Positions 3,338 to 44,090 of a stretch of 64,000 nt of DNA are shown here, piece by piece (the stretch's first letter is position 1; the number at the start of each line of letters is the position of its first letter). Source of the stretch: Pseudomonadota bacterium (GTDB lineage Bacteria; Oederibacteriota; Muellerivitia; Muellerivitales; Muellerivitaceae); contig JAJPJW010000054.1 in the NCBI GenBank assembly GCA_021324075.1, forward strand, positions 500-64,499, in the 5' to 3' direction. The position numbers were made by a program, and so were the translations under genes. The notes beneath the pieces are model-generated. The model saw nothing but the letters and a program-made list of their open reading frames with translations. It had not been told where the DNA came from and did no database searches.

Positions 3338-5821
3338 ATGGCTTCGCCCAAAGGCAAGAAAACCACCACCCGCCGCAAATCCGTTACCCCCCAAAAGGCC
3401 AAGCCGGTTCAGGTGAAAGCGGCCCCGGCGGCCGTTTCCCAGACCGACTTCCTCGGGTTGATGCTCTCCTGGGGCCTGGTTTTCCTGGCCCTGCTGTCCC
3501 TGCCCAACGCCCAGCTTTTGGTCCCGGGCTGGCGGTTTTTTTCCGGGCTGCCCTTTTACCCCCTCCTGATCCTCGGCTTCGCGGGTATGGTTTATTTCTT
3601 CCGGCGGATCCCCGAAGCGGGGACCACCGAGGACATCAGATCCCAATGGGCCCGCCCGATCTTCTTCCTCCTGCTCGTCCTGGGGGCCTTCATCCGGCTC
3701 CAGCAGATCAACCGTATTTCGGGCTGCATCGACAACGACCACTGGATGTGCGCCGACGAAGCCCTCAAGATCATGGAAGAGGGCGACCGGCCCATCCTCC
3801 TGCCCTATGGCCAGAGGGAGCCCTTCTTCGCTTATCTTTCCGCGGCCATCTGGTCCCTGAACCCCCAGGCAACGGCCAACGTAGCCCTGACCCTTTCCTC
3901 GGTATTGGTGGACGTCTTCATCCTGTGGTCCTTCTACCTGTTGGGCAAAGAGTTCGGCGGGCGCCGCGGGGGATTGATCTTCATGGGCATGGGCATGATG
4001 AGCAAGACGCTGGTGGAGATCTCGAAGATCAACTTCGGCTTCCACACGGACGTGCTGGCTTGCGCCTTGACGGTGCTTTTCCTCTTCCGGTTGCTGAAGA
4101 ACCCGAAACTGGCCCGCTTCCTCCATTGGGGCCTGGCCCTGACCCTCGGGTCCTACGTCTATGTGGCCTTCCGGCTCTGGACCCCGGCCATCATCGGCGG
4201 GTTGTGGCTTTGGATGTTTTGGAATCCGGAGCTGAGGCCCAAGACCCGCATCGGCTTCAGCCTTGCCTTCGCGGTCATGGGCGGCTGGACCTTCGCCTTT
4301 TTTTACGTCAACCGGGTGATCCCCCATGAATGGGGATGGGTGCATTTCCTTTCCTCCGGTTGGGGCCTCCTGGCGCTAGTGGCGGGGCTGCTTTTCCTCT
4401 ATATCCGGTCGGGAATGGAAAGCCGCGGTAAGGACTGGGTCTTCAAATGGGCCAGCGGGGCGCTTTTGGTAGCCCTGCTCTTAAGCCCACTTTGGTCCCA
4501 GCCCAATTATTCAGACCACCCGAACGAGATGGTCATTTTCCACCCCCGTTTCGAGATGACCAAGATGCAGTGCATCCTTTACTGCCTGGACAATTTTTGG
4601 AACGGCTTCAAGCTGCTCTTCAGCTACGACAACAACAACCCCTTCTGGAATATCCCCCCCATGCACGGAGATTCCTACATGGATTTTTTCATCCCCCTCT
4701 TCGGCTCGGCGGCCCTGGCGGCCTACCTGGCCCGCCCCCGCCTGGTCCAATCCTCCATCCTGTGCCTTTGGTTCATCGGCTACGCGGCCTTTTTCGTGAC
4801 CCATGGGGCCCATTCCAACCGGCTGATGGCCACCCTTCTGCCGATGTTCCTCATCGCGGCCTGGGGGGCCTACCGCCTGTGGCAGGTCTTCCGTTTTTCC
4901 ACCCTAAAAAACGGCAAGGCCTGGGGTAACGGCCTGCTTTTGGCGGTGGGGCTCTGGTCGTTGGTAACCAACGTCCAGATCCTGCAGGATTGGATGAACA
5001 TGCGCTGGCCCGACGCCTTCGTTCAAGACGTGATCGACGTCCTGCCCCAAGACAGGGTTTACCTGGTGCCCAGCGTGGGCCACTTCGGCGAAAGCGCCTG
5101 GGACCTGGTCAGCGAAGGCAAGGACGTCCATTTGGCCCTGGATTCCAATCCCATCGACCTGGTGGAAGGGGATAAGGGCAAGGATGTGGTGGTCATCCTC
5201 TGGGGAGGGGACGACGCCATGAAGGCCAAGCTGACCCAGGCCTTCCCCGGCGGCAGTTGGAGCGAGAAGGACAGCGCCTGGCCCGTCACCTCCCTCAAAT
5301 GGATCACCATTCCCTTCAGCCAGATCCCCCAGGACCCCAAGGCTTACCTCTCCGTCCGCTATACGCCGGCCACCGATTGGTCGAGGAAGTTCTACAACGG
5401 ATTATTATGCCGGGGGATCATCCGTGATGAGGACCGCTCCAACCATTGGAATGACAACCTGCCGGTCACCTTCATCCAGGGGGACAACACGGGCCGCATC
5501 TCAGGGGAATGGGAAGTGGAAAAGGACGGCGTTTACGAGCTCAGCTTCCGGACCAACAACACGACCCAGCTTTGGGTGGACGGAAAGAAGGTTCTGGAAC
5601 TGCAAAAACCGGACGGTAATCCGGCGCGCCGGACCCGCCTTAAGCTTTCCCAAGGGAAGCACCCCGTTGAGCTCTTGACGGATTTCCATGAGGAGCATGA
5701 TTTCCCGGCGGTTCTCGTCCGTTCCCCGGACGGAAGCTGGGAAAAGCCGTTGGAGGAACTCTCCCAATCCCCGCAGGCGGCTCCGGTCGCGGTGGACTCA
5801 ACCCCGGCATCCGTCCACTGA
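3338..5821 (+). CDS. ArnT/PMT_2-like GT-C membrane glycosyltransferase with a C-terminal PA14-like domain (paralog).
   Basis: 827-aa ORF with a Lys-rich N-terminal tail. The loop 'ADEALKIMEEGDRPILLPYGQREPFFAYLSAAIW' aligns with the ArnT 'DExRYAE...GDW...YFEKPPLxYW' motif block. The C-terminus 'GVYELSFRTNNTTQLWVDGKKVLE...HPVELL' is PA14-like. It lies 3 nt downstream of the previous gene. Confidence 0.65.
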   Translation: MASPKGKKTTTRRKSVTPQKAKPVQVKAAPAAVSQTDFLGLMLSWGLVFLALLSLPNAQLLVPGWRFFSGLPFYPLLILGFAGMVYFFRRIPEAGTTEDIRSQWARPIFFLLLVLGAFIRLQQINRISGCIDNDHWMCADEALKIMEEGDRPILLPYGQREPFFAYLSAAIWSLNPQATANVALTLSSVLVDVFILWSFYLLGKEFGGRRGGLIFMGMGMMSKTLVEISKINFGFHTDVLACALTVLFLFRLLKNPKLARFLHWGLALTLGSYVYVAFRLWTPAIIGGLWLWMFWNPELRPKTRIGFSLAFAVMGGWTFAFFYVNRVIPHEWGWVHFLSSGWGLLALVAGLLFLYIRSGMESRGKDWVFKWASGALLVALLLSPLWSQPNYSDHPNEMVIFHPRFEMTKMQCILYCLDNFWNGFKLLFSYDNNNPFWNIPPMHGDSYMDFFIPLFGSAALAAYLARPRLVQSSILCLWFIGYAAFFVTHGAHSNRLMATLLPMFLIAAWGAYRLWQVFRFSTLKNGKAWGNGLLLAVGLWSLVTNVQILQDWMNMRWPDAFVQDVIDVLPQDRVYLVPSVGHFGESAWDLVSEGKDVHLALDSNPIDLVEGDKGKDVVVILWGGDDAMKAKLTQAFPGGSWSEKDSAWPVTSLKWITIPFSQIPQDPKAYLSVRYTPATDWSRKFYNGLLCRGIIRDEDRSNHWNDNLPVTFIQGDNTGRISGEWEVEKDGVYELSFRTNNTTQLWVDGKKVLELQKPDGNPARRTRLKLSQGKHPVELLTDFHEEHDFPAVLVRSPDGSWEKPLEELSQSPQAAPVAVDSTPASVH

Positions 5822-39337: not shown

Positions 39338-40852
39338 ATGCCCCTGTTAGAACTCAAAAACATCACTAAAGACTTCCCGGGTGTGCGCGCCTTGGACGGC
39401 GTTTCCTTCGACCTGAACAAGGGCGAGATCCACGCCCTTTGCGGCGAGAACGGCGCGGGCAAAAGCACCCTGATCAAGATCCTTTGCGGCTACCACCCCT
39501 TCGGTTCCTACGGCGGGGAAGTGCTGCTCAACGGCCAGCCGACCCGGTTCAAAGACCTGAAATCCTCAGAAGAAAAGGGAATCGCCCTGATCGCCCAGGA
39601 ACTGGCCCTCGTGCCGGAGCTCACGGTTGCGGAAAACCTGCTTTTGGGCCGCTGGCCGAAGAAGGCGGGTTTCATCCGATGGGAGGAAGTGCACCGGGAG
39701 GCCCAAAGGGCCCTGGATTTGGTGGGCCTGCCTTTGGACCTTGAAAAACCCATCAAGGAACTGGGGATCGGCCAACAGCAGATGATCGAGATTGCCAAGG
39801 CCCTCTCCAAAAAAGCCGAAATCCTCGTTTTGGATGAACCCACGGCGGCCCTGACCGAGGCTGACACCGCACGGCTTTTGGATTTCTTAAAACAGTTGAG
39901 GAAACAGGGTGTTTCCTCCATTTATATCAGCCACCGCCTGGAGGAAGTGGGCCAGATCGCCGACCGGGTGACGGTATTGCGCGACGGCAAATCCATCGTG
40001 ACCGCCCCCATGTCCGGGTTAAGCCAGGACAAGATCATCGCCCATATGGTGGGCCGCGAGGTCAAGAACCTCTACCCCCGGCCCCAGACGAAGGCCGGGG
40101 AAGTCCTGCTGGCGGTGAAGGATTTCAGCGTGGAAGACCCGGCCAATCCCGGCCGGTTTGTGGTGAAGGGCGCCTCCCTTGAGGTCCATGCGGGGGAAGT
40201 GCTCGGCATCGCCGGGCTTATGGGGGCGGGCCGCACGGCCCTTTTGAGTTCCCTTTTCGGGGCGTCCCGTGGGAAGGTCCAAGGCCGCCTCACCGTCCAT
40301 GGGGAAGAGCGCCGGCCTTTTGCCTCGCCCGAAGAGGCCATCGGGGCGGGGGTGGCCCTGGTCAGCGAAGACCGCAAGCGTTACGGTCTGGTGCTGGAAA
40401 GCGCGGTGGAAGAAAACCTCATCCTGGCCTTCATGCGAAAGCTGGTCAAACACGGGTTCCTGGACCAACCGGCCATCGAAAAAGAATGCGATACCCAGGT
40501 AAAAGCCATGCGCATCAAGACTCCCGGCCTTTCCGCCTGGGTCAACAAGCTCTCGGGGGGGAACCAGCAAAAGGTGGTCCTGGGCAAATGGCTGATGACG
40601 CGGCCCCGGGTCCTCTTCCTGGACGAACCCACCCGCGGCATCGACGTGGGGGCCAAGTCCGAAATCTACGAGCTCATGGGCCAATTGGCCGCCCAGGGGA
40701 TCGGCATCGTGCTGGTTTCCTCCGACCTCCCGGAAATCCTGGGGTTGAGCCACCGGGTCCTGGTGCTCAACCAGGGGCGGATGACGGCGAAACTGGAAGC
40801 CGAGGATGCCACGCCCGAGAGGGTTTTGGCCGCCGCGGCCCTTAAAGTCTGA
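39338..40852 (+). CDS. xylG: Xylose ABC transporter ATP-binding protein with duplicated ABC domains.
   Basis: 'MPLLELKNITKDFPGVRALDGV' is the start typical of this family. There are two Walker A and two signature motifs. The annotated upstream ATG (39284) lies inside the repeat element. Confidence 0.85.
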   Translation: MPLLELKNITKDFPGVRALDGVSFDLNKGEIHALCGENGAGKSTLIKILCGYHPFGSYGGEVLLNGQPTRFKDLKSSEEKGIALIAQELALVPELTVAENLLLGRWPKKAGFIRWEEVHREAQRALDLVGLPLDLEKPIKELGIGQQQMIEIAKALSKKAEILVLDEPTAALTEADTARLLDFLKQLRKQGVSSIYISHRLEEVGQIADRVTVLRDGKSIVTAPMSGLSQDKIIAHMVGREVKNLYPRPQTKAGEVLLAVKDFSVEDPANPGRFVVKGASLEVHAGEVLGIAGLMGAGRTALLSSLFGASRGKVQGRLTVHGEERRPFASPEEAIGAGVALVSEDRKRYGLVLESAVEENLILAFMRKLVKHGFLDQPAIEKECDTQVKAMRIKTPGLSAWVNKLSGGNQQKVVLGKWLMTRPRVLFLDEPTRGIDVGAKSEIYELMGQLAAQGIGIVLVSSDLPEILGLSHRVLVLNQGRMTAKLEAEDATPERVLAAAALKV

Positions 40853-40854
40853 CG

Positions 40855-42549
40855 ATGGCCAAAAACCCCAAAGCCGCCCCGGGCCAAGGACTTGGAACCA
40901 TCCTCTCATGGGCCCTGATGGCGGGCCTGGGGTTCCTGGGAATATGGCAATTCCACAACGTTGAGTTCTATTCCGATTTCGACCTCGTGCCGGGAGGGCG
41001 GGGCGACAACCGGCTGGTGACGGCCCTTCTGGAGTATTTTTACCACGCCCTCCGGGGTGAGGGTTCCTTTTCCTCCCCGGCCTTTTATTACCCCGCCCAG
41101 GGTACCCTGGGGTACGCCGACGTTTTTTTAAGTTATTCCATCCCCTACGGCATCCTGCGGAGCTTCGGGATGGATGTCTTTTCCTGTTACCAGGTTTGCG
41201 GCATCCTCTTCAGCCTTTTGAACTACCTTTGCGGTTTCCTTTTGCTTTACCGGGGATTGGGCCGCGGTGTCACCGCTTCCGCTTTGGGCGCCTTCCTTTT
41301 CGCCTTCAACGCCCCTAAGTTCAACCAGATCAGCCACCCCCAACTCCAATGCCTCTTCCTCCTGCCGCTCGTGGTGTGGTTGGCGGTGGAATGGGTCAAA
41401 CGGGGTTCGAAAATTTCGCCGCGCGAATCCTTCACCTTTCTTTGCGCCGCCGTCCTCGTGGCGGATTTCCAGCTTTATAGCGGCTTTTACATGGGCTGGT
41501 TTTTCTTTTTCTGGGTCCTGCTCTTCTTCATCCTTTCCCTTAGTTTCAAGGCCACCCGGGGTTACCTGTGGGAGATTTGGCAACACCATCAACTTCCCCT
41601 TTTGGGGGCCGGGGTTGTCTTCGTCCTGGGGTTGGTCCCATTCCTATGGATTTACCTGCCGGTCATCCGCGAACTTGGGGGAAAAAGCTACAGCGAAATC
41701 CAAATGATGACCCCGGATGCGTGGTCCTTCCTCTGGATGGGGCCGCGCCACAGCTGGTGGGGTTGGCTATGGGACCATTCCCAGACCATCCGGAATTATC
41801 CGGTGGAGGGTGAAGAGAGGGACGGCTTGGGTTTGTCCGTCCTGGCCGCCTGGTTCCTATTGACCCTGGCGGCGGTTTGGTTTCTAAGGGAAAAGAAGCC
41901 TCCTTTTTCCGATAAAACCAAGGCTGTTTATTACTATTTCGCCGCTGTGGCGGTCCTTGCCACCACCCTCTTTGCCCTTTTAGGTTTTAAATATCCCGGC
42001 GATGTTTCCCCCTGGCGGATCATCTATGAGCTGGTGCCGGGGGGCGGCAGCATCCGGGCCGTTTCCCGGTATGTCCTATTCATCGCCCTGCCTCTCTCTG
42101 TTTTTATTGGGCTCGCTTTTCAAATGCTTTTGGAAAAGGTTAAAACCCTCCGCGAGCCTTTGGGAGGGCGGGTTTTTACGGCACTCTTGTTCCTATGGGG
42201 CGCTGTGATGGTGTTTGAACAGGTCGGGTTGCCGCCTTACCCCGCTTTTTCCAAATCCGTGGACCTGAACCGGTTGGAATACCTGAGCGAAAAATTACCG
42301 GCCCAATGCAACGCCTTTTACGTCGATGTGGATCCCCGGCTGACCTATGACGCCACCAACCTCCAGATCGACGCCATGCTTCTTTCAGCCGTGCGGGGCA
42401 TCCCCACCCTCAACGGCTACAGCGGGGCCAATCCGAAGGATTGGAACCTGTACCGCGTCAGAAGCCCCCGTTATCATGAGTATGTCCAGGATTGGGTCGG
42501 CCAAAACCACATTGGGGGACCTATTTGCGGAGTTTTGATCGACCGGTAA
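40855..42549 (+). CDS. Polytopic integral membrane protein of unknown function, inserted between xylG and xylH.
   Basis: 564 aa with at least 12 hydrophobic segments and a Lys-containing N-terminal tail 'MAKNPKAAP'. Its ATG lies 2 nt after the xylG stop. Confidence 0.5.
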   Translation: MAKNPKAAPGQGLGTILSWALMAGLGFLGIWQFHNVEFYSDFDLVPGGRGDNRLVTALLEYFYHALRGEGSFSSPAFYYPAQGTLGYADVFLSYSIPYGILRSFGMDVFSCYQVCGILFSLLNYLCGFLLLYRGLGRGVTASALGAFLFAFNAPKFNQISHPQLQCLFLLPLVVWLAVEWVKRGSKISPRESFTFLCAAVLVADFQLYSGFYMGWFFFFWVLLFFILSLSFKATRGYLWEIWQHHQLPLLGAGVVFVLGLVPFLWIYLPVIRELGGKSYSEIQMMTPDAWSFLWMGPRHSWWGWLWDHSQTIRNYPVEGEERDGLGLSVLAAWFLLTLAAVWFLREKKPPFSDKTKAVYYYFAAVAVLATTLFALLGFKYPGDVSPWRIIYELVPGGGSIRAVSRYVLFIALPLSVFIGLAFQMLLEKVKTLREPLGGRVFTALLFLWGAVMVFEQVGLPPYPAFSKSVDLNRLEYLSEKLPAQCNAFYVDVDPRLTYDATNLQIDAMLLSAVRGIPTLNGYSGANPKDWNLYRVRSPRYHEYVQDWVGQNHIGGPICGVLIDR

Positions 42550-42566
42550 TTGTTGTTTTTACTTTT

Positions 42567-42982
42567 CCCTCTCCCCATGCGGGAGAGGGTAAGGTGAGGG
42601 GTGATGGCCGATAAGCTACAAGGAAACTTTGCTAGGACTTTACGCCGGAACCAAACGGAAGCTGAAAAAAAGCTTTGGAGATATTTGCGTTCTAGGGAGT
42701 TTCAAGGGGTTAAATTCCGGCGACAACAACCGTTGGGCCATTATGTTGTTGATTTTTGCTCCCTTGAAAAAAGACTTATTGTTGAACTGGATGGCGGTCA
42801 ACACGCTTTGAATCAAGACGAAGACGCCAAACGAACACAATACCTTAAGAAATCTGGTTACAAGGTAATTTGTTTTTGGAATAACGAAGTTTTAGAAAAT
42901 ATTGAAGGCGTTTTGGAAAGAATAAAGCAAAGCTTAGCCTAAACACCCCTCACCCCATCCCTCTCCCGCAAGGGGAGAGGGG
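42567..42982. mobile_element. Miniature cassette: a DUF559 endonuclease-like gene flanked by ~38-bp terminal inverted repeats.
   Basis: Left IR 'CCCTCTCCCCATGCGGGAGAGGGTAAGGTGAGGGGTG' (42567-42603). Right IR 'CACCCCTCACCCCATCCCTCTCCCGCAAGGGGAGAGGG' (42944-42982). They are ~87% reverse-complement identical. Internal GC is ~40%, against ~60% for the flanks. Confidence 0.6.
42604..42942 (+). CDS. DUF559 (Vsr/restriction-endonuclease-like fold) protein.
   Basis: 'EAEKKLWRYLRSREFQGVKFRRQQPLGHYVVDFCSLEKRLIVELDGGQH...D..R...L...GYKVICFWNNEVL' is the DUF559 signature. Confidence 0.75.
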   Translation: MADKLQGNFARTLRRNQTEAEKKLWRYLRSREFQGVKFRRQQPLGHYVVDFCSLEKRLIVELDGGQHALNQDEDAKRTQYLKKSGYKVICFWNNEVLENIEGVLERIKQSLA

Positions 42983-42995
42983 GAAAAGAGAAGCA

Positions 42996-44090
42996 ATGAA
43001 CGACAAGAAACTGCAAATACCCTGGCGCGCCCTGACGATGGTGGGGGCGCTTCTGCTGATATGGGTCATTTTTTCCATCACCACCGAGGGCATTTTCCTG
43101 GGGCCCCGCAACCTTTCCCTCTTGATGCGGCAGATGTCGGTCACCGCCATTTTGGCCATCGGGATGGTGCTGGTCATCGTGGCGGGGCAGATCGACCTTT
43201 CGGTGGGCGCCATGACGGGCTTCCTGGGGGCGGTCTCGGCCATCCTGTTCGTGAACCATAACTGGCCCCTTTGGGCCACCTTCGCCGTCACGATCCTCTT
43301 GGGGGCCTTGTTGGGGCATTTTCAGGGGCATTTGGTCACCTGGTTCAATATTCCCCCTTTTATCGTGACCTTGGGGGGAATGTTGATCTTCCAAGGCGCC
43401 TTGTTGGGGCTCACGGGCGGCGTGGCCATCAGCCCAACGCCTGATTATCTTTTTGTGGGCCAGGCCCACGTGGCCAAGCTGGTCGGATGGGCCCTCTTCG
43501 GGCTTGTGGCGATCTTCTTTTTGTACCTGGCCTTTAAAAGCAAAACAGCCGCCGCCAGGTTCAAGTGGCTCGGCCTATTGGCCCTAGCCGGTGTTTTTAT
43601 CGCCGTCATGAACGCCTATGAAGGGATTCCCTTCCCCGTGCTGCTCATGCTTCTATTCGCGGCGGTTTTTTCCATTGTGGCCCAGCAGACGCCTTTTGGC
43701 CGGCACCTTTACGCCATCGGCGGCAACCGGGAAGCGGCTTTTTATTCCGGCATCAACATCAACCGGCATATTGTCCTGGTATTCACCCTGATGGGCGCCA
43801 TGGTCGGTGTGGCCGGCATCGTCCTCACCGCGCGGGTGGGTTCGGCCACCTCGGATGCCGGACGCATGATGGAGTTGGACGCCATTGCGGCGGCCGTCAT
43901 CGGGGGGACCTCCCTGATGGGAGGGCGGGGAACGGTTTGGGGCGCCATCTTGGGGGCCCTGGTCATGGCCTCACTCGACAATGGCATGAGCCTGATGAAC
44001 ACCGAAGCCTTCTGGCAGCCCATCATCAAGGGAAGCATCCTGGTGGTCGCGGTAGCCTTGGATATGATGGGACGGAAAGGTAAAAACTGA
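42996..44090 (+). CDS. xylH: Xylose ABC transporter permease.
   Basis: Colinear with E. coli XylH ('ARNLSLLMRQMSVTAILAIGMVLVIVAGQIDLSVGA', 'RRIYAIGGN', 'ELDAIAAAVIGGTSL', 'MASLDNGMSLM'). Confidence 0.85.
   Translation: MNDKKLQIPWRALTMVGALLLIWVIFSITTEGIFLGPRNLSLLMRQMSVTAILAIGMVLVIVAGQIDLSVGAMTGFLGAVSAILFVNHNWPLWATFAVTILLGALLGHFQGHLVTWFNIPPFIVTLGGMLIFQGALLGLTGGVAISPTPDYLFVGQAHVAKLVGWALFGLVAIFFLYLAFKSKTAAARFKWLGLLALAGVFIAVMNAYEGIPFPVLLMLLFAAVFSIVAQQTPFGRHLYAIGGNREAAFYSGININRHIVLVFTLMGAMVGVAGIVLTARVGSATSDAGRMMELDAIAAAVIGGTSLMGGRGTVWGAILGALVMASLDNGMSLMNTEAFWQPIIKGSILVVAVALDMMGRKGKN

Follow-up and report, generated by a model that had tools for sequence, protein, structure and literature searches.

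The repeat family first described as BoxC was renamed the PIT (potential intrastrand triplex) element and later TM or TMECO (PMC4666352), in a literature that includes Bergler 1992, Hoyne et al. 2000 and 2002 and Holder et al. 2015 (PMC4666352). The TMECO consensus is CCCTCNCCC-N3-6-GGGNGAGGG-N3-GGGNGAGGG, and Escherichia coli K-12 carries 23 TM copies, five as inverted pairs (PMC4666352). The G-rich strand of an E. coli TM forms a very stable purine-motif triplex in vitro, as judged by circular dichroism and nuclear magnetic resonance, and TMs have been tied to local instability in E. coli (PMC4666352). The genes adjacent to TMs form no functional class, and no mobility genes lie nearby (Holder et al. 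2015, PMC4666352); PIT elements are cited as having neither promoter nor terminator activity (Hoyne & Maher 2002, cited in PMC4666352). Here we report that a stretch of 64,000 nucleotides (nt) from contig JAJPJW010000054.1 of a Pseudomonadota bacterium, hereafter the window, contains two inverted copies of this repeat. The published repeat has no associated gene or known origin, whereas in the window a nuclease gene of the DUF559 family fills the inward-facing pair. The same TM-gene-TM arrangement recurs as a unit in bacteria of many phyla. The systematic nesting of DUF559 genes within BoxC/TM pairs is apparently unreported so far: we found no paper linking DUF559 or its E. coli member ycjD to BoxC/TM, the literature being judged mainly from titles and abstracts.

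Other described systems resemble parts of this arrangement. The REP/RAYT partnership (REPIN-RAYT, TnpA-REP) also combines a single-copy, mostly vertically inherited nuclease gene flanked by two inverted short hairpin repeats with a repeat that is dispersed in excess, as singlets and doublets of a genome-specific subtype. The enzymes differ, in that RAYT is an HUH Y1 (IS200/IS605-like) transposase whereas the window's enzyme is Vsr/PD-(D/E)XK-like. The repeats differ as well: a TM has a third mirror block where a REP has a GTAG/CGTC tag, and near-identical TMs recur across phyla whereas REPs are lineage-specific. The cassette appears to work like the REP/RAYT system but does not belong to it. 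Vsr nicks T:G mismatches and is typically encoded beside its partner cytosine methyltransferase (dcm in E. coli). I-Bth0305I, a homing endonuclease of the EDxHD family (PDB 3R3P), is larger, encoded in a phage intron and equipped with an extra DNA-binding region. DUF559 itself has a solved structure (PDB 3HRL) and a member in E. coli, YcjD, and we know of no function for it.

In the window, the left repeat (42567..42603, plus strand) reads CCCTCTCCC-CATGC-GGGAGAGGG-TAA-GGTGAGGGGTG. The right repeat (42944..42981, minus strand) reads CCCTCTCCC-CTTGC-GGGAGAGGG-ATG-GGGTGAGGGG in its own orientation and CACCCCTCACC-CCAT-CCCTCTCCC-GCAAG-GGGAGAGGG on the plus strand. Between them lies the DUF559 open reading frame of 112 codons (42604..42942, plus strand, stop TAA at 42940-42942); the left repeat runs directly into its ATG, and its stop codon is 1 nt from the right arm. 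The gene has a guanine plus cytosine (GC) content of 0.398, against 0.576 window-wide. Each repeat consists of a pyrimidine block (S), a loop, a purine block (S'), a spacer of 2-4 nt and a G-rich block (B) that mirrors the purine block, which is the layout of a purine-motif intrastrand triplex. On the left these parts occupy 42567-42575 (S, CCCTCTCCC), 42576-42580 (loop), 42581-42589 (S', GGGAGAGGG), 42590-42592 (spacer) and 42593-42601 (B, followed by TG), and on the right 42944-42955 (B'), 42956-42958 (spacer), 42959-42967 (S), 42968-42972 (loop) and 42973-42981 (S').

The two repeats, 37-38 nt long, are reverse complements of one another except for the loops and one indel. A repeat search returned inverted arm pairs of 23 nt at 96% and 11 nt at 100%, and gapped alignment lengthens the inverted repeat to about 43 nt when the outer CTTTT/AAAAG is counted. 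The outer 23 nt of each repeat form a 9-bp hairpin (DNA fold -10.6 to -11.1 kcal/mol, z -2.3 to -3.8), and the inner arms B and B' are perfectly complementary over 11 nt. The inverted repeats with internal hairpins that the original prediction had described from the bare sequence are thus real. The motif CCCTCTCCC-N5-GGGAGAGGG, with up to 2 mismatches, occurs at two places in the 64 kb, namely both repeats, and the window's TM units are just these two copies; 100 shuffles give an expectation of 0, which rules out a chance origin of the pair. We found no target-site duplication or direct repeat around the unit, where insertion-site duplications had been anticipated; the outer CTTTT/AAAAG merely lengthens the inverted repeat, and comparison with the empty site of a relative (L205, described below) reveals no duplication either. 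Searches for -35/-10 hexamers and for a hairpin followed by a T-run gave no promoter or terminator site at either TM, and an Rfam scan of 42300-43200 (E<=10) returned sub-threshold, miRNA-like noise on the hairpins and no family at threshold. The left block B, which abuts the ATG, probably supplies the ribosome-binding site of the DUF559 gene.

What had been read as "terminal inverted repeats" in the window is a pair of units of the published BoxC/PIT/TM repeat in inverted orientation. They share its three-block consensus and its mirror rule, under which the third block, read 3' to 5' against the purine block, gives antiparallel G·G, A·A or T·A matches, with 0-1 mismatched triplets in the window's units. 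Read on the minus strand, the right unit is an exact fit to the TMECO consensus (PMC4666352); the left unit departs from it at a single base of the third block, which makes one mismatched triplet. Differences between the window's TM sequence and the E. coli one are confined to the loops and one triplet, and the window's pair is intergenic and inverted, like the "tandem inverted" TMECOs of E. coli. The ends are not terminal repeats specific to this element, contrary to what had been supposed.

The protein matches Pfam DUF559 (PF04480) with E=1.2e-44 and 151.1 bits, against a gathering threshold of 20.6, over profile positions 5-108 of 109, which bears out the predicted Vsr-fold nuclease. Its best full-length match is NCBIfam PRK09767 (YcjD), at 125.7 bits against a cut-off of 218; the protein belongs to the YcjD family but is not a YcjD equivalog. 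The best solved relative, from the same family, is 3HRL, Neisseria gonorrhoeae NGO0050, deposited as an "endonuclease-like protein" (E=2e-26). An AlphaFold (AF2) model with a mean predicted local distance difference test (pLDDT) score of 88.9 has as fold neighbours, in order, 3HRL, I-Bth0305I and Vsr (1VSR). The catalytic domain of I-Bth0305I (3R3P) is the closest characterised neighbour (E=4e-5, TM-score 0.67/0.75); the two have in common the fold of the catalytic core and the acidic/histidine catalytic set, whereas the window protein is a 112-residue core, chromosomal and not intronic, with an identity of 22-23%. Similarity to the Vsr fold is weaker (E=0.02-0.07); fold and type of catalytic residue are shared, and no methyltransferase is adjacent to the window's DUF559 gene. 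Residues D50, E61, D63 and H67 are invariant in 40 homologues, and the window protein has the Vsr-type catalytic set intact. PADLOC gave no match, and we rejected a component of a defence system as an identity for the gene. The family is very large: its cluster representatives number 24,917 at E<=1e-3 and 11,565 at E<=1e-10.

We examined 80 metagenome loci encoding relatives of the window protein (50-68% identity). In a motif-free comparison, the 160 nt upstream of each gene were aligned to the reverse complement of the 160 nt downstream. The median local score was 20.5 within the same locus, 10.5 when the upstream sequence was paired with another locus's downstream sequence, 8 after shuffling and 8 for flanks 540-700 nt away. 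We then applied a finder based on the triplex rule (stem of at least 8, with at most 1 mismatch in the stem and 1 in the third block). Both canonical TMs, the upstream one on the plus and the downstream one on the minus strand with the G-rich arms toward the gene, were found in 47 of the 80 loci; 13 loci had the upstream TM only, 8 the downstream TM only (at least one canonical TM in 68/80) and 2 another arrangement. Within 130 nt of the gene ends TM density is 7.5/kb, against 0.21/kb over the other 240 kb of these loci, a 35-fold enrichment.

The repeat sequence varies by locus (GGGAGAGG, GGGGGAGG, GGGAGGGG, GGGGGAAG and others), and the two ends tend to match: the S' core is identical at both ends in 19/39 cassettes against a null of 12.6%, and the cassette's subtype is shared by other TMs on the same contig in 23/43 cases against 17%. 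Asymmetric blocks tend to follow the mirror rule: among 108 DUF559-flanking units, 67 have zero mismatches under it and 25 under a direct-repeat rule, and in the comparison of the two rules the mirror rule wins 49 to 11. The annotated C-terminal tails of many DUF559 homologues in unrelated metagenomes, for example PSPRPSPARGEGE and PLTPALSRKGRG, are read-through translations of a similar 3' hairpin. The cassette is co-oriented with the upstream gene in 42/55 loci. The GC content of DUF559 is lower than that of its flanks in 57/60 loci, by 7.5 points on average, with the window copy extreme at -17.7, and it tracks host GC (r=0.77).

The association extends, with a less strict geometry, to cultured genomes. 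TMs stand on both sides of DUF559 on Deinococcus proteolyticus pDEIPR03, they occur near DUF559 in Azospirillum lipoferum, Sphingomonas parapaucimobilis and N. gonorrhoeae, and short-stem TM variants occur at DUF559 in Picosynechococcus PCC 7002. Some variation in the ends was also seen. In three loci (L048, L059, L071) an extra GC-rich hairpin of about 20 nt, for example GGGAGAGGG-AGGGGCCCGCCGCGCAGCGGCGGGA-GGGTGAGGGG, lies between the purine and third blocks at both cassette ends, and in L019/L024 the two ends carry two different TM subtypes. In another locus (L107:~4000-4392) a YajD-like HNH endonuclease reading frame ends right beside a TM, which may be coincidence or may indicate a second nuclease family tied to TMs.

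We also scanned across genomes, taking one genome per species, for exact matches to CCCTCTCCC-N3-7-GGGAGAGGG-N2-5-GGTGAGGGG. At least 120 stretches matched, and they belong to Pseudomonas, Enterobacteriaceae, Azospirillum, Planctomycetota, Omnitrophota, Cyanobacteria, Akkermansia, Muribaculaceae, Atribacterota, Dehalococcoidia and other groups. The TM-bearing genome loci, 887 kb in all, contain 259 TMs, and all DUF559 matches in them lie within 41 nt of one. Neighbouring TMs form 50 inward, 59 outward and 19 tandem pairs, and 38 of the 50 inward pairs, with spacers of 15-62 nt, have the geometry of the cassette minus the gene. Remnants of DUF559 were found in 2/44 inward spacers and in 0/45 outward or tandem control spacers (best control E=9). 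They are a 3' remnant matching profile positions 73-111 (L157, E=0.006) and another reading WDDEVLGEIE (L135), and they indicate that some doublets are decayed cassettes; most doublet spacers are uninformative as to origin. Short derivatives without the gene, comparable to miniature inverted-repeat transposable elements (MITEs), had been suggested for this unit and do exist in this form. One stretch (L172:1390-1998) contains five tandem 143-nt units, each an inward TM doublet with a conserved 43-44-nt spacer, in a satellite-like amplification of the doublet. No compact cargo other than DUF559 was found between inward TM pairs; larger TM-TM intervals contain ordinary genes, with the TMs in the adjacent intergenic regions. 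As the sole recurring cargo between these repeats, the nuclease is probably not the passive passenger that it had been taken for.

The gene is not the dispersed multicopy gene that had been expected. Chromid and chromosome records mostly contain 1 DUF559 copy, and of 5426 complete E. coli genomes 3378 have ycjD, as a single-copy gene (median 1, maximum 2 places). A plasmid search yielded 45 records, mostly chromids or mislabelled chromosomes, a phage search yielded 3 weak matches, and no relative was found in viral contigs; this near absence from phages, viral contigs and true plasmids led us to reject a phage or plasmid vehicle. All cassette pairs with at least 83% nucleotide identity and comparable flanking DNA are syntenic, which argues against frequent transposition. 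Being single-copy, syntenic, free of target-site duplications and rare on plasmids and phages, the cassette is not like an insertion sequence. With MITEs and their parent transposons it has in common inverted ends, gene-less short derivatives and presence/absence variation; it differs from them in lacking a target-site duplication, a transposase (whether DDE, HUH, serine or tyrosine) and a multicopy autonomous element, and its TM ends also occur singly and in outward pairs.

The genomic neighborhood of the window's cassette allows its presence and position to be followed. The cassette fills the gap between the stop codon (42547-42549) of a gene for a 564-residue membrane protein (40855..42549, plus strand; no Pfam or NCBIfam match) and the start (42996) of a gene for an xylH/GguB-like sugar ATP-binding cassette (ABC) permease (42996..44090, plus strand), in agreement with the placement originally given. 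The other neighbours are an xylF-like gene, above the TIGR02634 cut-off, and an xylG-like gene; the locus is an xylF/xylG-type ABC operon with which the DUF559 gene is co-oriented. A T-rich left junction, TTGTTGTTTTTACTTTT (42550..42566), leads from the membrane-protein stop to the left TM, has a terminal CTTTT mirrored by GGAAAAG in the right junction and aligns to the empty site of L205. The right junction, GGAAAAGAGAAGCA (42982..42995, plus strand), contains the purine-rich ribosome-binding region of xylH and in the alignment is conserved in filled and empty relatives.

An exact look-up of the DUF559 protein gave no record, and we found relatives of the window locus through the membrane-protein neighbour, whose position relative to the cassette varies among them. 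Two loci (L001, L002) come from the same strain as the window, are 100% identical and carry no comparative information. The orthologous TM-DUF559-TM cassette stands at the window's junction in L206 and L207 (membrane protein 74% and 73% identical). In L205 (79%) the membrane-protein gene and xylH are separated by a 45-nt spacer with neither TMs nor gene, and the alignment breaks exactly at the outer TM ends. Across the three filled loci (window, L206, L207) the TMs hardly differ, and the DUF559 protein is about 60-68% identical; this greater conservation of the repeats may reflect selection on them, and we count it in favor of a functional partnership between repeat and nuclease. Two further relatives, L209 (2903-3026) and L210 (2616-2730), have at this junction an unrelated AT-rich palindrome, about 110 nt long and containing a separate hairpin, TTTTCAATCC...GGATTGAAAA, and a DUF1189 gene upstream where the window has xylG. 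The junction between the membrane-protein gene and xylH therefore seems to be a hot spot for palindromic insertions.

The position of the cassette varies as well. The order is xylG, membrane gene, cassette, xylH in the window, L206 and L207 (with xylG and the membrane gene 2 nt apart in the window, at 40850-40857) and membrane gene, xylH without the cassette in L205. The nearest homologues that are not identical also belong to xylFGH operons, with the cassette at other junctions. In L217 (2340-2880) the cassette lies between xylG and xylH with no membrane gene (xylG 87% and DUF559 75% identical to the window's), and in L003 (2930-3460) it lies between xylG and the membrane gene (80% and 68%). 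Either the cassette or the membrane gene has moved, and the breakpoints coincide with the outer TM ends. The gene trees on the two sides of the cassette conflict: the membrane protein joins the window to the cassette-free L209 and L205, and the window's XylH is nearer to that of the cassette-bearing L206/L207 than to that of L205 (distance 0.11 vs 0.15). This discordance suggests recombination near the TMs. The cassette is conserved as a whole, and is gained, lost or repositioned as a whole. Of the mobile cassette envisaged in the original prediction, what stands is a discrete presence/absence module, filled in L206/L207 and empty in L205; a transposase, a target-site duplication and a change of surroundings between close copies do not accompany it. 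The fixed stem-loop pair that had been held up as the alternative, with the repeat occurring here only and relatives carrying the gene without it, is not what we observe, as the repeat is widespread and orthologous loci carry both gene and repeats.

Escherichia coli provides a second view of the association. BoxC was first described in a paper on envM (= fabI), the gene next to ycjD, according to the citation in PMC4666352 (reference 46). K-12 has one ycjD, and TMECO#9, at this same locus of first description, lies about 170 nt downstream of it. A degenerate S-loop-S' hairpin is present inside the 3' end of the ycjD coding sequence. Between ycjD and TMECO#9, in the ycjD-fabI region (minus strand, L204:1440-1610), there is also a duplicated 3' fragment of ycjD, GAGACGGTGCTGGAGAATATTC...CTGAACCG, which looks like the scar of an earlier cassette rearrangement. 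The E. coli cassette is decayed: it lacks the upstream TM, and a 3' fragment of its gene is duplicated. The fabI-sapF interval occurs as two alternative alleles, one with ycjD and TMECO#9 (K-12, L204) and one with the eefRABCD efflux operon (APEC O2-211, L216). Homology of the latter to K-12 resumes about 40-50 nt from the position of TMECO#9, and ycjD with TMECO#9 is missing from 38% of complete E. coli genomes, which have eefRABCD at that position instead. The replacement of eef by ycjD has occurred on at least two independent occasions (PMC12817139). The median number of blastn matches to one TM unit is 7 per E. coli genome.

The architecture is thus directly observed, and from it we infer an enzymatic link between DUF559 and TMs. 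In our analysis the best fit is a repeat-associated nuclease cassette comparable to REP/RAYT, built on the Vsr/homing-endonuclease fold, and we give this interpretation about an even chance of being correct. We favor it as it accounts jointly for the single-copy resident gene, the excess of gene-less singlets and doublets, the contig-specific subtypes and the conservation of the repeat across phyla. DUF559 would be the cognate nuclease of the TM repeats, much as RAYT genes lie between inverted REPs, with a Vsr/PD-(D/E)XK-type nuclease in place of the HUH transposase. It would recognize the TM either as a duplex or as a hairpin or triplex folded on transiently single-stranded DNA, and would introduce a nick there or close by. 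The nicks, once repaired or recombined, could keep TM copies homogeneous, generate TM singlets and doublets at other places and occasionally carry, delete or shift a gene-bearing doublet. The cross-phylum conservation of the repeat sequence would then be that of a recognition target. The window's cassette would be a long-term resident of its operon, probably expressed by read-through, and not actively hopping.

A number of observations weigh against this interpretation. Recognition or cleavage of TMs by DUF559 is purely our inference. Holder et al. 2015 did not detect the triplex in vivo and found duplex TM DNA to be B-form in vitro (PMC4666352). Most TMs are distant from the gene, which adjoins only 6 of the 143 TM units (5 loci) among the matches listed from the cross-genome scan. 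A TM match is present in 4534 complete E. coli genomes and a ycjD match in 3378, leaving at least 1156 that are TM-positive without ycjD, so that TMs are maintained in the absence of the gene, at least over such times. The 80 loci of the coupling analysis are the nearest relatives of one protein and represent this DUF559 clade only, and in 10 of them the triplex-rule finder found no TM, although several of these carry an extra hairpin in the spacer. The geometry is loose, with outward-pointing B arms in D. proteolyticus pDEIPR03 (L212:1416-1840), L033, L142 and L019/L024. No near-identical cassettes in unrelated contexts occur among the 80 loci, so that any recent movement is hypothetical, and the positional variation in xyl operons can also be explained by movement of the membrane gene.

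A stronger version of the same partnership is that DUF559 enzymes create, homogenize and spread TMs, so that the cassette would be autonomous, and inward doublets non-autonomous, members of an unrecognized class of bacterial mobile or selfish DNA. We regard this as a tentative possibility that falls short of being probable. If true, a Vsr-fold nickase acting with ends that form triplexes or hairpins would take the place of a transposase in this class, and both the conservation of the repeat across phyla and the reported genome instability at TM loci would be explained.

The explanation that survives best among the alternatives involves no enzymatic link at all, and we consider it rather unlikely. 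TMs would be structure- or recombination-prone punctuation, or expression-control hairpins, flanking the gene of a nuclease with a housekeeping role in repair. Base pairing between the 11-nt inner arms of the mRNA could, for instance, mask the ribosome-binding site and ATG of a nuclease that may be toxic, for which the overlap of B with the ribosome-binding region, the complementarity of B and B' and the lack of a promoter in a cassette usually co-oriented with the upstream gene all speak. An RNA-only role, however, needs no third mirror block, RNA does not form purine-motif triplexes (PMC4666352, introduction), and the PIT elements are, as cited above, without promoter or terminator activity. 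Alternatively, TMs and DUF559 may both accumulate in permissive intergenic hot spots. The instability reported near TMs in E. coli, the unrelated palindrome at the same junction in L209/L210 and the persistence of TMs in E. coli genomes without ycjD speak for a lack of enzymatic link; co-location in hot spots does not account for the regular geometry, the 35-fold enrichment, the matched subtypes of the two ends and the absence of other compact cargo.

A free-standing homing-endonuclease gene is quite unlikely in our assessment. Its target would be the inner-arm junction of an inward TM doublet, the palindrome ...GGTGAGGGG / CCCCTCACC...; gene-less doublets would be cut, repair from a gene-bearing copy would install the gene, and the split palindrome would leave the site immunized. 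TMs would then be pre-existing host repeats that the gene exploits and does not produce. Several features described above fit this model, including the exact placement of the gene between the B arms with start and stop codons abutting, the abundance of inward doublets with short spacers, the fold closest to the catalytic domain of I-Bth0305I, a GC content below that of the flanks, as is typical of selfish genes, and the patchy distribution among relatives. However, the empty alleles at the window's junction (L205, L209, L210) contain neither the gene nor the TMs, which indicates that gene and repeats come and go together and not that the gene entered a pre-existing doublet; in this they seem unlike the gene-less allele that simple homing models would cleave. 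The gene is also single-copy despite several doublets: E. coli has five, the one ycjD lies outside all of them, and there is no evidence that any was filled by a DUF559 gene. Cases of reversed orientation count against homing as well.

Finally, an autonomous cut-and-paste transposon, with 38-bp terminal inverted repeats, DUF559 as transposase and TM doublets as its MITEs, would account for inverted ends that bound a presence/absence polymorphism, for the different junction in L003, for deletion derivatives with gene remnants and for nearly identical ends across phyla, but it is very unlikely given the single-copy, syntenic and non-duplicating behavior of the cassette, its rarity on plasmids and phages and absence from viral contigs, the frequency of single TMs and outward doublets (as common as inward doublets and unpredicted by a terminal-repeat model) and the size of the enzyme, a 112-residue Vsr-fold nuclease without known strand-transfer activity, where even the PD-(D/E)XK protein TnsA of Tn7 needs the transposase TnsB.

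BoxC/PIT/TM repeats, which are present in many bacterial genomes, have been known since 1992 without a known origin, partner protein or function. The nesting of DUF559 between inverted TMs joins two orphans, a repeat and a protein family, and makes DUF559 a concrete candidate partner enzyme for repeats that have lacked an explanation for three decades. Both orphan questions become testable at the bench with the YcjD or NGO0050 protein, TM oligonucleotides and the 23 mapped TMs of K-12. If the link between DUF559 and TMs holds, the cassette would join REP/RAYT as a second partnership of repeat and enzyme, with an unrelated mechanism, and would offer an explanation for the genome instability associated with TMs.

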